Positions 1 through 3,595 of a stretch of DNA of 29,958 bases are shown here, piece by piece (position 1 is the first letter of the stretch; every line of letters begins with the position of its first letter). Made by a program: the position numbers and the translations under genes. The notes under the pieces were generated by a model, which was given only the letters and a program-made list of their open reading frames with translations, ran no database searches and was not told the origin of the DNA. The DNA is from Labilithrix sp. (GTDB lineage Bacteria; Myxococcota_A; Polyangia; Polyangiales; Polyangiaceae): the NCBI GenBank assembly GCA_019637195.1, contig JAHBWA010000114.1, positions 1 through 29,958 of the forward strand. The letters run 5' to 3'.

Positions 1-925
1 AGGCCGAGCTCCCCCAGATGCCGCGGAGCACGACGGTCGCCTGGCTGTCGACCGGTGTCCAGTCGAGCGGGTCGCCCTTCGTGTCCACGCCCGGAGCGGC
101 GGGGCGTCCGTGCAAGGTCTTGCCCGCTTCGATCGCCGACCCCTGGTAGTTGCTGTTGGTGCGACGGTTGTCGACGAGGATCCAGACGTCGTCGGGGGAG
201 CTGCCCCAGATGCCCGTGACGGTCCCCTTGAGACCGCCGACGCGCGTGAGCGGGCTCTTGCCCTCTTCGACCGGGCTCGCCGCCTTGACGAGCATGTTCC
301 CGGACGTCTGGTTCGGCCCGTCGTCCTTCGGCTGCGTCCCGATGCGGAGATCGTCGGGGCCGAAGCCGAACATCACCGTCGTCGCGGTCTCGAAGTACGG
401 GGCGACGCTGACCGGGGGGAGCCTCGTCCACGCCACGCCTCCGTCCGCGAAGCCGCCGGAGCGCATGATCGTCATCGTGTCGCTCACAGCCCAGACGTCG
501 CTCGGACCGCTGCCCCAGACGGAGAAGAAGGTCGACTTGTTGTCGATCGGGACGGCCTTCCACGCGGCGCCGTCGTAGTGGAAGGCGCTGCCTCGCGAGC
601 CGACCGCCCAGACGTCGGACTTGCTCGAGCCCCACACCGACGTGAGTCGCTCCGAGGATCGGACGCCGGCCGGGGCGATGCACCAGTCGACCTGCGAGCA
701 GTCGGGCGCGAACACGCACCCGGCGTCGCCGGCGTCGCACGACGCGTCGGCCGGCTGCGCGTCCGGGGCGCCGAGCGTGACCTCGCGTCCGGCGTCGATG
801 TCGACGCCCGGCTCCTGCTCGCTCGCCGCGCAGTTGGCGAACGCGCCGAGAAGGCCGACGGCCGAGCCGAGCGCGAGGACCGGCGCGAACGCGCCGCGCA
901 GGTGTCGCTCGAGGGAGAGCTTCAT
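1..925 (-). CDS. Secreted lipoprotein with propeller-type repeats, 3'-partial (C-terminus lies beyond the window start). It is absent from the supplied ORF track, probably because no stop codon falls inside the window.
   Basis: ATG at 925..923 overlaps the TGA of the upstream gene as ATGA. My manual translation, MKLSLERHLRGAFAPVLALGSAVGLLGAFANC..., has a lipobox (FANC) and runs open to position 1 with very high GC3. It contains at least four copies of a (S/G)(V/I)WGS(S/G)xxDVWAVG-type motif: TSVWGSSKSDVWAVG, FFSVWGSGPSDVWAV, GIWGSSPDDVWILV and GIWGSSA. Confidence 0.6.
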   Translation of the reverse strand, partial: MKLSLERHLRGAFAPVLALGSAVGLLGAFANCAASEQEPGVDIDAGREVTLGAPDAQPADASCDAGDAGCVFAPDCSQVDWCIAPAGVRSSERLTSVWGSSKSDVWAVGSRGSAFHYDGAAWKAVPIDNKSTFFSVWGSGPSDVWAVSDTMTIMRSGGFADGGVAWTRLPPVSVAPYFETATTVMFGFGPDDLRIGTQPKDDGPNQTSGNMLVKAASPVEEGKSPLTRVGGLKGTVTGIWGSSPDDVWILVDNRRTNSNYQGSAIEAGKTLHGRPAAPGVDTKGDPLDWTPVDSQATVVLRGIWGSSA

Positions 926-2214
926 CGCGCCAGCACTCCGCCGTCTTCGTCGCACGTCGTGGTGAGACACTTTCCTTCGACGCACGGCTGCCCGAGGACG
1001 CCGTCGCACGTGACGCCGCAGCCGCCGCAGTCGTTGGGATTGATCATCGTGTTGACCTCGCAGCCGTCGGCCAGGTCGCCGTTGCAGTCGGCGTAGCCGT
1101 CGTCGCACGGGTATTCGCAGCTGCCCTTGTTGCAGGTGACGCTCTGATGGGGGCCGGCGCCCGGGCAGGCGTTCACGCACGAGCCGCAGTAGTGCGGGTC
1201 GTTGTTCAGATCGCGACAGCCGCCGCCCTGCTCCCCCGCGCTCCCGCAGTCGGTGAGCCCGAGCTTGTCACAGGTGTCGATGCACTTGATCTCGAGGCCG
1301 ACGCGGCCGCAGATCTGGCCGGGGCCGCACTTGTTCCCGCACGCTCCGCAGTTCTCGAGGGTCGTGACCGGCGTCTCGCAGCCGGACCAGGCGCCCTGCG
1401 GGTGGTTCGGGCACTGCCCCATGTCTTTGTCGCAGTCCCCCCAGCCGAGCTGGCAGGCCAGGTTCCCGCAGACGCCGTTCAGGCACTTGGCCTGCGCGTG
1501 CTTGTCGATGAGCTCGCAGCCGGCGAACGGTCCGTCCTCCGGGATGAACGGGCAGGCGCGGCCGCACTCACCGCAGTTCAGATCGTTCGTGCTCAGATCG
1601 ACGCAGCGTCCGTTGCAGCTGGTGAAGCCGGCGGGACAGCCGCATCGGCCCTCGATGCAGGCGTCGCCCGGGTTGCACTCGTTCCCGCAGACGCCGCAGT
1701 TCATCGGGTCGCTGTAGACGTCGACCTCGCAGCCGTCGTCGAGGATCCCGTTGCAGTTCTTCAGGTTCATGATCGGATCCTCGAGGGCGATCATGCACTG
1801 GAAGTCACACTTGCCCTGGACGCACTGGCCGATCATGCCGATCGGCTCGTAGTCGTCGCAGCTCACCCCGCACGCGCCGCAGTTGTTGCGGTCGTTCATG
1901 AGGTTGATCTCGCACCGGTACGTCGGCTTGTCCGTCTCGCACGTCGTGTACGGAGACGGGCACTCGGTCGCGACGCACTGGAGCAACCGGTCCGGACCGA
2001 CGGACGCGTCGCCTCCATCGGCTGTGTCGGCTCCCGCGAAGCCACCGGGCCCGAGATCCGGCGACTCGGCGACCGAGACGGTGCTCGAGCAACCGGCGAA
2101 GAGCCAAGCGGCGAGCGCGCAAGTCGTGACGAGGAGCGCCCCCTTCGCGCTGCGCCCGGCGATGTGTCGATGCATTTCGGGCTGTCCTTTCGCGACGAGC
2201 CGAGGCGGGTTCAT
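922..2214 (-). CDS. Cysteine-rich repeat lipoprotein, about 45 Cys in total. Only the 3' part of ORF 922..2784 is real.
   Basis: Lipoprotein signal ...MHRHIAGRSAKGALLVTTCALAAWLFAGCSS with lipobox LFAGC. At least eight copies of a (D/N)xxNCGxCGxxC motif: NDRNNCGACGVSC, DPMNCGVCGNEC, NDLNCGECGRAC, LENCGACGNKC, DPHYCGSCVNAC, NPNDCGGCGVTC. The ATG at 2214 overlaps the anti-sigma stop as ATGA. The alternative start ATG 2175 (MHRH...) sits behind an AAAGGA Shine-Dalgarno and would give a more canonical signal length. The upstream 190 residues of the ORF are Arg/Ala/Gly-rich junk that overlaps the anti-sigma gene. Confidence 0.75.
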   Translation of the reverse strand: MNPPRLVAKGQPEMHRHIAGRSAKGALLVTTCALAAWLFAGCSSTVSVAESPDLGPGGFAGADTADGGDASVGPDRLLQCVATECPSPYTTCETDKPTYRCEINLMNDRNNCGACGVSCDDYEPIGMIGQCVQGKCDFQCMIALEDPIMNLKNCNGILDDGCEVDVYSDPMNCGVCGNECNPGDACIEGRCGCPAGFTSCNGRCVDLSTNDLNCGECGRACPFIPEDGPFAGCELIDKHAQAKCLNGVCGNLACQLGWGDCDKDMGQCPNHPQGAWSGCETPVTTLENCGACGNKCGPGQICGRVGLEIKCIDTCDKLGLTDCGSAGEQGGGCRDLNNDPHYCGSCVNACPGAGPHQSVTCNKGSCEYPCDDGYADCNGDLADGCEVNTMINPNDCGGCGVTCDGVLGQPCVEGKCLTTTCDEDGGVLAR

Positions 2215-3056
2215 GGCAGCGAAGGAGAGTCGGCGCTCGGGGCCTCGCCCGGCGGGGCCGCCACGGTCAGGGGCTGCCCGAGGGCCTTCTCCAGGTGAGC
2301 GACGTACGGCGTGCGCGGGAACCGACGGACGAGGGCGCGCGCCCGGACGAGGGCCTCGTCCCGGCGGCCGAGCTTGGCGAGCGCTGAGGCGGCGACCACC
2401 TCGCGCTCCTGCGTGAGCTCGCCGTTCGGGAAGAGGTGCGCGTGCTCGTCCGCGAGCGCCAGCGCGCGCTCCGGGTTCGAGGCGAGCGCGTCTTGCGCCT
2501 GCCGCACGATCAGCAGCTCCGGCGCCGCGACGCTCTCGCCCGAGGCCGGCGAGGCGCCGCGCGCCGGCGCGTCCGCGGACGACGCCGCGCGCGGAGCCGC
2601 GGCCGACGGCAGGGCGTCGATCGAGACCGTGGCGACGGCGGCCTCGGTCGAAGGCGTCTCGGGGAGCGCGGAGCGCGGCTCGGTCGCCTCGCGCGACGCG
2701 GTCGTGGGGACGGCGAGCTCCGCGGCCGACGGCCCTCGCGGCTCGATGACGGGCGCGCCGGTCGAGACGGTCGTCGCGCGCCACGCGAAGAGCGCGCCGG
2801 CGGTGACGGCGAGCACGACCGCGCCCGCCTTGAAGGAGCCGACGTTCCCCGCGACCCGGCTCGCCTGGCGCGCGCCGGCAGCAGGGGCCTCGGAAGGCGA
2901 CGGCGCCTGGAGCGCGCCGGCGGCGATCAGCTGCTTCGACATGCGCCGCAACGCCTCCGGGCTCGGCCCGCGGCTTCGCGTCGCGCGCACGAGCTCGTCG
3001 AGCGCACCGGCGTCGTCGTGAGGCGCGTTCGGAGGGTCGGTCGGATCGTTCTTCAT
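2211..3056 (-). CDS. Membrane-anchored anti-sigma factor, cognate to the ECF sigma factor, with a TPR-like C-terminal periplasmic domain.
   Basis: Internal start MKNDPTDPPNAPHDDAGALDELVRATRSRGPS... at 3056 overlaps the sigma-factor stop as ATGA. One transmembrane helix, GAVVLAVTAGALFAW. C-terminus ...ALASNPERALALADEHAHLF...RRDEALVRARALVRRFPRTPY. The upstream part of ORF 2211..3653 is the other-frame read of the sigma gene. Confidence 0.7.
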   Translation of the reverse strand: MKNDPTDPPNAPHDDAGALDELVRATRSRGPSPEALRRMSKQLIAAGALQAPSPSEAPAAGARQASRVAGNVGSFKAGAVVLAVTAGALFAWRATTVSTGAPVIEPRGPSAAELAVPTTASREATEPRSALPETPSTEAAVATVSIDALPSAAAPRAASSADAPARGASPASGESVAAPELLIVRQAQDALASNPERALALADEHAHLFPNGELTQEREVVAASALAKLGRRDEALVRARALVRRFPRTPYVAHLEKALGQPLTVAAPPGEAPSADSPSLP

Positions 3057-3595
3057 GGAGCCTCTTGGATCGCCTTCGCGAGCTCGCGGCGCGCGGCGTG
3101 GAGGCGCGCGTACGCGGTGGAGAGCGGACAGCCGACGGCCTCGGCGACCTCGCGCATGGGCATCTCCTCCACGTCGTGGAGGAGGAAGACGGTGCGCTTG
3201 TCCTCGTCGAGCGTGTCGAGGACGGACGCGAGCCGATCGAGCTCGACGCCGGCGGCCGGATCGCGGCTGTGGCTGCTCTCCGGGACGTTCTCGACGGCGC
3301 GCTCGTGCCGCCTGTAACTTCGTCGCCGGTACCCGGACGCCGCCCGCCGCGCGATCGCGTAGAGCCACGCCCGAGGATGCTCGACGCTCACGTTCGCGAA
3401 GTGGCGGTGGGCGACGAGGAAGACCTCCTGGGTCTGATCCTCGAGATCCGCCTCGGCGACTCCGAAATGGCGCAAGCTCCGCCACACGAAGTCGACGTAG
3501 TCGTGAAAGAGAGCGTCGAACGTCATGCGCGCGGGAGCCTCGCTTCGAGGAGCCTCCAGCGCGCCCGTGACGGCGCGAACGAGTAGCGCGTTCAC
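3053..3595 (-). CDS. ECF-type (sigma-70 family, group IV) RNA polymerase sigma factor.
   Basis: Region 2: DFVWRSLRHFGVAEADLEDQTQEVFLVAHRHFANV...PRAWLYAIARR. Region 4 HTH: DKRTVFLLHDVEEMPMREVAEAVGCPLSTAYARLHAARRELAKAI. GTG start at 3595; an alternative ATG at 3526 would leave only about 8 aa before region 2.1, so the longer form is preferred. Confidence 0.9.
   Translation of the reverse strand: MNALLVRAVTGALEAPRSEAPARMTFDALFHDYVDFVWRSLRHFGVAEADLEDQTQEVFLVAHRHFANVSVEHPRAWLYAIARRAASGYRRRSYRRHERAVENVPESSHSRDPAAGVELDRLASVLDTLDEDKRTVFLLHDVEEMPMREVAEAVGCPLSTAYARLHAARRELAKAIQEAP

Follow-up and report, generated by a model that had tools for sequence, protein, structure and literature searches.

Among described systems, those closest to the locus studied here are FecI-FecR-FecA and the Bacteroides SusC/SusD loci equipped with extracytoplasmic function (ECF) sigma/anti-sigma pairs, in which the ECF sigma gene is followed by that of a single-pass partner, beside genes for an outer-membrane-type protein and lipoproteins, with many individually regulated paralogous copies. 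RpoE-RseA offers a second comparison, with a group-4 sigma factor, a co-transcribed single-pass partner carrying a periplasmic sensor domain, and overlapping start and stop codons. We have analyzed a 29,958-bp stretch (hereafter the window) that is an entire contig of a Labilithrix sp. metagenome-assembled genome (MAG) with about 71% G+C, from the lineage Myxococcota, Polyangiales, Labilitrichaceae. Positions 1-4759 of its minus strand contain five genes, the leading part of a single copy of an eight-gene envelope cassette that is conserved in Labilitrichaceae and that has, or is predicted to have, the features listed above. Unlike the Fec and Sus loci, the cassette gave no match to a TonB-dependent receptor, SusD, FecR or STN domain in our searches, and its cargo consists of three beta-propellers, a Cys-rich rod and an IgGFc_binding protein, with no glycoside hydrolases. 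Unlike RseA, its partner has no similarity to RseA_N or RseA_C and is not accompanied by an RseB; the periplasmic domain resembles the tetratricopeptide repeats (TPRs) of BamD, and a genome has many such cassettes, every one of them linked to lipoproteins of its own. We put at about 60% the probability that the cassette is an ECF-controlled, translationally coupled, self-switched envelope operon gated by its membrane partner.

The eight genes encode, in this order, a secreted barrel-like protein, the ECF sigma factor, the single-pass partner with its BamD-like TPR, a Stig1-type Cys-rich lipoprotein, a Ycf48-like seven-bladed propeller (WGS-A), a second such propeller, an RCC1-type propeller lipoprotein and an IgGFc_binding lipoprotein. 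The last three lie past window position 1 and were read from a Logan contig (L001) that is 99.7% identical to the window. There, the row of same-strand genes goes on with a 406-aa propeller homologous to WGS-A, a 462-aa RCC1-repeat lipoprotein (WD40_RLD, E = 1.6e-48) and an IgGFc_binding-domain lipoprotein of ~609 aa (E = 5.5e-89). The original prediction, an operon of four genes, has thus to be extended by the secreted gene upstream and by the three lipoprotein genes beyond position 1. The upstream boundary of the cassette at this locus is a tRNA-Glu(CTC) gene (4956..5028, minus strand; Rfam tRNA, 45.6 bits; also called by ARAGORN), which is outside the cassette, between its first gene and a vault-like gene, and is the sole tRNA on the contig. 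An Rfam scan of positions 1-5300 returned nothing besides this tRNA.

Conservation was assessed in 75 related loci from GTDB genomes, retrieved with an alignment of the Cys-rich protein as query; of at least 502 matches, the 80 best were kept. Neighboring genes were located by tblastn and, for the sigma, partner and upstream genes, also by profile hidden Markov models. The comparison covered paralogous loci as well as four loci orthologous to the window locus (orthologues include L006, L007 and L008). The tblastn searches recovered a seven-gene order in the 75 loci. Among the 68 loci with enough flanking sequence, the profiles placed the sigma gene in 56 and the partner in 58, and found the barrel-like gene upstream in 50. 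The gene order that was to be checked in relatives, in which a sigma factor and a single-pass membrane protein translated together with it are followed on the same strand by secreted repeat lipoproteins, proved to be conserved.

The cassette is amplified within genomes, with at least 15 copies in Labilithrix luteola DSM 27648, at least 12 in Myxococcales bacterium 68-20, and at least 17 and at least 16 in two MAGs. The median identity to the window copy was 35% for the sigma factor, 37% for the second propeller, 41% for the first, 42% for both the Cys-rich and the RCC1 protein, and 50% for the IgGFc_binding protein. The partner was 20-32% identical over its full length, and tblastn detected it in only 29 loci. 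With these values for sigma and partner, the regulators are the most diverged parts of the cassette, and for this reason each copy probably works apart from the rest and responds to a cue of its own, much like the many sigma/anti-sigma-gated polysaccharide utilization loci of Bacteroides. A lone ECF sigma factor with a membrane partner ahead of secreted proteins would be routine; what stands out is the scale and regularity with which the same eight-gene unit has been kept in order, overlaps included, despite a drift of its proteins to 25-50% identity. Neither the amplified cassette, nor the TPR/BamD-like partner domain, nor the upstream protein was found described in the searchable literature (subscription journals and the ECF Hub being outside its coverage). 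The components are of known kinds and the ECF operon is ordinary, but the amplified cassette appears to be undescribed.

Some further observations concern individual copies. Cassettes often occurred in groups within 20 kb, arranged either tandemly or back to back (L008, L013, L017, L034, L049, L057 and L063). At L006 (ENA contig_14915, positions 5000-16900 of a 104-kb contig), several cassette genes are split into two open reading frames (ORFs) and the sigma gene is duplicated, which looks like frameshift errors or pseudogenization. Downstream of the IgGFc_binding gene in L007 (17074-18285), and also in L006 and L008, there is a gene for a 403-aa lipoprotein with about nine Cys-rich repeats of the type E(T/S)DVDCGGxC, which has no Pfam or NCBIfam match. 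This gene was considered as part of the core cassette and rejected, being confined to orthologous loci (3/65 tested).

The product of 3053..3595 (minus strand) is an ECF (group 4) sigma-70 factor, a claim of the original prediction on which the Pfam, NCBIfam and PDB matches agree. It has regions sigma-2 and sigma-4 only, both above the curated thresholds (Sigma70_r2, E = 1.5e-8 and 34.7 bits for a cut-off of 24; Sigma70_r4_2, E = 3.8e-13 and 49.3 bits for a cut-off of 25.7). NCBIfam TIGR02937 scored 70.6 bits (cut-off 42.9), and the best PDB matches were ECF sigma factors, with Mycobacterium tuberculosis SigH/SigE and CnrH as the nearest solved structures. The G+C content at third codon positions was 0.87-0.95 in all four minus-strand frames of sigma, partner, Cys-rich protein and propeller.

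The sigma gene has two candidate starts, GTG 3595 (180 aa) and ATG 3525 (157 aa), of which gene callers take the latter. GTG 3595 and the 69 nucleotides (nt) that follow it, free of indels, are kept in the four orthologous loci. Pairwise substitutions among five orthologous sequences were distributed over the codon positions of these 69 nt as 64/69/82, with no third-position excess, and the stretch could be either coding or a conserved regulatory element. Its region contains the sequence GTGAAC-N17-(C/T)(G/A)TC (3597-3568), which has the look of an ECF promoter and is kept only in the four orthologous loci.

Minus-strand ATGA tetranucleotides lie exactly at 3056-3053, 2214-2211 and 925-922, and all three had been taken as couplings between genes. 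Two of them were supported by the comparison of loci. At the sigma/partner junction (3056/3053), an in-frame start with a 4-nt overlap was present in 27/30 loci, and in 51/55 sigma-bearing loci by direct inspection. The Cys-rich and first propeller genes (925/922) overlapped by 4 nt in 64 of 74 loci, with a candidate 1-nt overlap in 11 loci. The same 4-nt overlap joined the two propeller genes in 61/66 loci. At 2214/2211, between the partner and Cys-rich genes, it occurred in just 8/32 loci, the others having gaps of ~13-60 nt. This rate is, as a rough estimate, about that of chance, considering that three of the four possible preceding bases give a start codon, that one frame in three fits and that TGA stops are frequent. 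An overlap both kept and in frame, as translational coupling implies, was hence found at 3056/3053 and 925/922 and not at 2214/2211.

The third ATGA is spurious, and the Cys-rich gene starts at 2175. A start at 2214 was rejected, the overlapping GTG of L007 and L008 being out of frame and 43 and 41 nt from the conserved ATG. ATG 2175 is kept in both loci, with a Shine-Dalgarno-like box (AAAGGA/AAAGAA) 9-10 nt 5' of it, and gives a signal peptide of 29 residues up to the lipobox Cys, as in most homologues. The resulting 417-aa product is the one called by NCBI and Logan, whereas an exact look-up of the 430-aa product from ATG 2214 gave no record.

The partner and Cys-rich genes, with a 35-nt gap between them, probably still belong to one transcription unit. 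The intergenic gaps within the cassette range from -4 to 35 nt and thus leave no room for internal intergenic promoters. Terminator-like sites within the gene row were not above chance, and neither was anything in a sigma-70 promoter scan.

The gene that overlaps the sigma stop codon (2211..3056, minus strand, 281 aa) encodes the partner, regarded as anti-sigma-like for its position, start/stop overlap and topology. The protein has a short cytoplasmic N-terminus, crosses the membrane once with a helix around residues 75-92 and carries, after a linker rich in Pro and Ala, a TPR-like domain of ~95 aa at its periplasmic C-terminal end. In 48 of the 51 overlap loci, the start on the sigma stop codon opens an ORF of 232-295 aa whose single hydrophobic helix lies around residue 50-80. 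The alignment of 42 family members showed a weakly conserved cytoplasmic segment, the helix, a linker with VDxLPxAP and a conserved C-terminal domain of ~95 residues. The profile of this family matched the N-terminal TPR region of BamD in the PDB (9pxg_D, E = 3.8e-5; Escherichia coli BamD, ~0.03), and Pfam matches among the 42 members were to YfiO (9/42) and TPR_14 (8/42). The partner contains no Cys and consequently no HxxxCxxC motif, and it showed no recognizable class I anti-sigma domain (zf-HC2, RskA, RseA, FecR). The name of anti-sigma factor given to it earlier is therefore consistent with its position and single-pass topology, but is matched by no recognized anti-sigma domain. Its location after the sigma gene, the coupling and the single transmembrane helix are all conserved, and an anti-sigma role is a reasonable inference from these three features.

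In the proposed mechanism, the partner would be translated in step with the sigma factor and act as its anti-sigma factor, with the ~70-residue cytoplasmic N-terminus holding sigma at the inner membrane. Sigma would be freed when the TPR domain senses a periplasmic event, which could be that it binds the end of a peptide or one of the envelope proteins encoded by the cassette itself, and sigma could then transcribe the whole cassette as a single unit. The five lipoproteins, perhaps joined by the barrel-like protein, may assemble into a binding complex at the cell surface or in the outer membrane.

Several results weigh against this self-switched operon. Around seven cassettes whose flanks are complete, the neighboring genes are unrelated ones and include no sigma gene, and in two others the sigma gene is divergently oriented; it follows that the lipoprotein module can be expressed without an adjacent switch. 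No anti-sigma domain was matched in the partner (Pfam and NCBIfam) or in the 42 family members (Pfam), and there was no solved anti-sigma chain among the PDB profile matches of the partner, even at E <= 10. Nor was a promoter identified. The GTGAAC-N17-(C/T)GTC element was not enriched 5' of the paralogous sigma genes, GAAC-N15-19-CGT preceded the sigma gene in only 9/56 cases, an unbiased two-block and k-mer enrichment scan of the regions 5' of sigma genes gave no shared motif, and relaxed promoter patterns occurred there at control frequency. To these points we add that the outer-membrane or surface location of the cassette proteins, their assembly into a complex and their ligand are all presumed, and that the barrel character of the upstream protein is our own reading of its sequence.

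This upstream protein is encoded at 3656..4759 (minus strand) and is supported by profile synteny, an alignment and signal peptides. It has 367 aa (~356-367 aa in the family) and comprises a signal peptide, a small N-terminal domain, a Pro-rich linker and a beta-rich C-terminal region ending in GYEFP. Its homologues share cleavable signal peptides, an L.L.W.AP.GCP motif at the mature N-terminus, two invariant Cys in the N-terminal domain and an aromatic C-terminal residue. There was no Pfam match, a PDB profile search gave only low-complexity noise, and the database relatives are all named "hypothetical". We read it as a putative outer-membrane barrel.

The position of this gene, directly 5' of sigma and on the same strand in 50/68 loci, bears on a different explanation, in which the cargo itself is the sensor. 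As FecA does for FecR and FecI, the lipoproteins, with or without the barrel protein, would recognize an external ligand and pass the signal on to the TPR domain, and the main regulon of sigma might then be elsewhere. A secreted protein whose N-terminal domain is joined by a long Pro-rich linker to a barrel-like C-terminus would suit such a task, the periplasmic domain of the partner is of a protein- or peptide-binding TPR type (BamD-like), and many diverged copies fit many ligand specificities. We nevertheless consider this explanation unlikely. The cassette searches found no TonB-dependent transducer, FecR or STN domain, the seven cassettes devoid of any sigma/partner pair indicate that the cargo does not strictly depend on the adjacent switch, and tight same-strand packing with sigma is the usual signature of target genes and not of a separate sensor. 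A sensing cargo and the self-switched operon are, moreover, not mutually exclusive.

The Cys-rich lipoprotein (922..2175, minus strand, 417 aa; assigned by its Stig1 match, its lipobox and the start-site comparison) is 100% identical to NCBI KF850_28885. It was correctly predicted to be a lipoprotein with units of the NCGxCGxxC type, but it has 54 Cys instead of about 45 and six units instead of at least eight. Five exact CGxCGxxC and one CGSCVNAC make up the six [DN]xx[ND]CGxC[GV]xxC units, three of which are preceded by a CNGxxxDGCE motif. The lipobox LFAGC is canonical, and 52 Cys follow the lipobox Cys, enough for ~26 potential disulfides. In 32 homologues, all six units, about 50 Cys and the lipobox Cys itself were invariant. 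In the AlphaFold2 model (pLDDT 78, pTM 0.49), small beta-hairpin modules follow one another in an elongated string, to which no PDB structure was significantly similar.

The myxococcus cysteine-rich repeat TIGR02232, against which the protein was to be checked, was not among its NCBIfam matches at E <= 0.1, and NF041328 (MXAN_6577-like) reached 93.1 bits over three stretches for a cut-off of 100. The repeat instead matched Pfam Stig1 (PF04885), a family named after a plant protein, with 38.5 bits (cut-off 24.1; E = 1.7e-9), over residues 193-222 only, corresponding to positions 43-72 of the 85 in the model. PF04885 is also precomputed in the database for nearly all homologues, some of which match the STIG1-related CPL1-like family PF21671. 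The likeness to STIG1, a plant stigma Cys-rich peptide, lies in the unit D-x-x-N-C-G-x-C-G-x-x-C followed by G-x-C. The cassette protein differs from it in being a bacterial lipoprotein with six units, of which a single 30-residue stretch matches the 85-position model, and the function of plant STIG1 cannot be transferred to it. For the family of ~400-aa Cys-rich lipoproteins, the database lists 2,321 relatives, of which almost all come from Labilithrix-like sources and some are mislabelled as tryptophan synthase alpha chain. The repeat profile, in turn, matches 18,260 cluster representatives, many of 1,000-4,300 aa and with up to 41 matched stretches, and the idea of a myxobacteria-specific repeat is accordingly not established. 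Among the giant repeat proteins (P0274-P0422), some score as Stig1 or CPL1-like and most have no Pfam annotation.

With 52 mature Cys, this protein would be a demanding folding substrate, which is one argument for the cassette being a monitor of envelope assembly similar to RpoE/RseA. The TPR domain would then detect an unassembled outer-membrane protein or lipoprotein of its own cassette, and sigma would adjust expression in a quality-control loop with no outside cue. The N-terminal region of BamD binds outer-membrane-protein targeting sequences, and it is this region that gave the best solved match of the TPR domain. The resemblance is weak (9pxg_D, E = 3.8e-5; E. coli BamD, ~0.03), neither RseA/RseB-like domains nor protease genes were found in the cassette, and it would be unusual for each of at least 15 cassettes to have its own stress loop. 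Such a monitor seems to us improbable. It is just as hard to credit that the sigma/partner pair and the lipoprotein genes are only neighbors that were duplicated together with no regulatory link, which would fit the cassettes with no sigma gene or a divergent one and the lack of a shared promoter motif, but not the same-strand adjacency that persists in 56/68 loci despite ~35% protein identity, nor a partner/Cys-rich gap of just 13-60 nt. All three alternatives overlap in part with the self-switched operon.

The first propeller gene, WGS-A, occupies 1..925 (minus strand) and runs off the contig end after 308 of its 417 codons; the conserved overlap, L001 and an AlphaFold2 model support it. Its full length of 417 aa was taken from L001 and from a 95%-identical protein, P0121. 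The WGS(S/G)xxDVWAVG repeats reported for it, and the propeller they suggested, are real. Six clear WGSxxDVW blades and one degenerate blade were counted, and the model of P0121 (pLDDT 82.5, pTM 0.79) is a seven-bladed beta-propeller. Its best Foldseek match was Ycf48 (5ojr, E = 3e-12, target TM ~0.7). The fold is thus that of Ycf48, while the sequence stays below the thresholds (PF14870, 15.9 bits for a cut-off of 27; PRK13684, 20.5 for 326). WGS-A resembles the photosystem II assembly factor Ycf48/HCF136 in its seven blades, in structure and in weak sequence matches, and differs from it in an identity of 13-18%, in a non-photosynthetic host and in a lipoprotein-type signal peptide. Homologues labelled "PilY1" by RAST likewise show only a propeller resemblance.

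At the end of the WGS-A signal peptide is FANC, in which the Asn at -1 is non-canonical. The Cys is conserved in position, and 66/74 homologues have a canonical box. Judged from its sequence, WGS-A is probably a lipoprotein, as had been proposed, in spite of its own atypical box. A lipobox pattern was found in 66/74, 60/66, 67/68 and 60/69 homologues of the cassette proteins downstream of the Cys-rich protein, and lipoboxes were seen in all five downstream cassette proteins.

Taken further, the cassettes might be a hitherto unrecognized, massively amplified family of self-contained envelope modules for sensing and capture, each with eight genes, an orthogonal sigma/TPR-anti-sigma pair, a small periplasm-spanning barrel protein and a five-lipoprotein surface complex, and each tuned to a different prey or polymer ligand. 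We hold this only tentatively, with the odds clearly against it. If true, it would make them a myxobacterial counterpart of the Bacteroides polysaccharide utilization loci, built from entirely different parts. The conserved order and the copy number suggest a modular surface system, switched copy by copy, in a predatory and saprophytic lineage with large genomes, the signaling of which has hardly been explored. It would provide a natural set of presumably orthogonal sigma/anti-sigma pairs, with the BamD-like TPR as a candidate for a new type of anti-sigma periplasmic domain. It also gives a genomic context to the poorly understood Stig1-type Cys repeats, bacterial Ycf48-like propellers and bacterial IgGFc_binding domains. 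L. luteola DSM 27648 is cultured and has a complete genome, which makes the predictions testable.

Other genes of the contig were also inspected. Just 5' of the tRNA and the cassette, 5083-7857 (minus strand) encodes a 924-aa bacterial major-vault-protein-like protein with the Pfam domains MVP_shoulder (6e-14), Vault_3 (7e-7) and Vault_4. PADLOC gave no meaningful defense match for the cassette proteins, the only hit being a marginal helix-turn-helix match of the sigma factor (E = 7e-4). Adjoining genes at 17153-21255 encode an HMG-CoA reductase, a cytokinin-dehydrogenase-like FAD oxidase and a Trp_DMAT-type aromatic prenyltransferase, and may form a small biosynthetic cluster for a prenylated indole. 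The regions 12140-15144 and 23543-26853, unrelated to the cassette, contain genes for an FMO-like monooxygenase, a TcdA/TcdB-type (DXD) glycosyltransferase, a CheB methylesterase and two SpoIIE/PP2C-type phosphatases.

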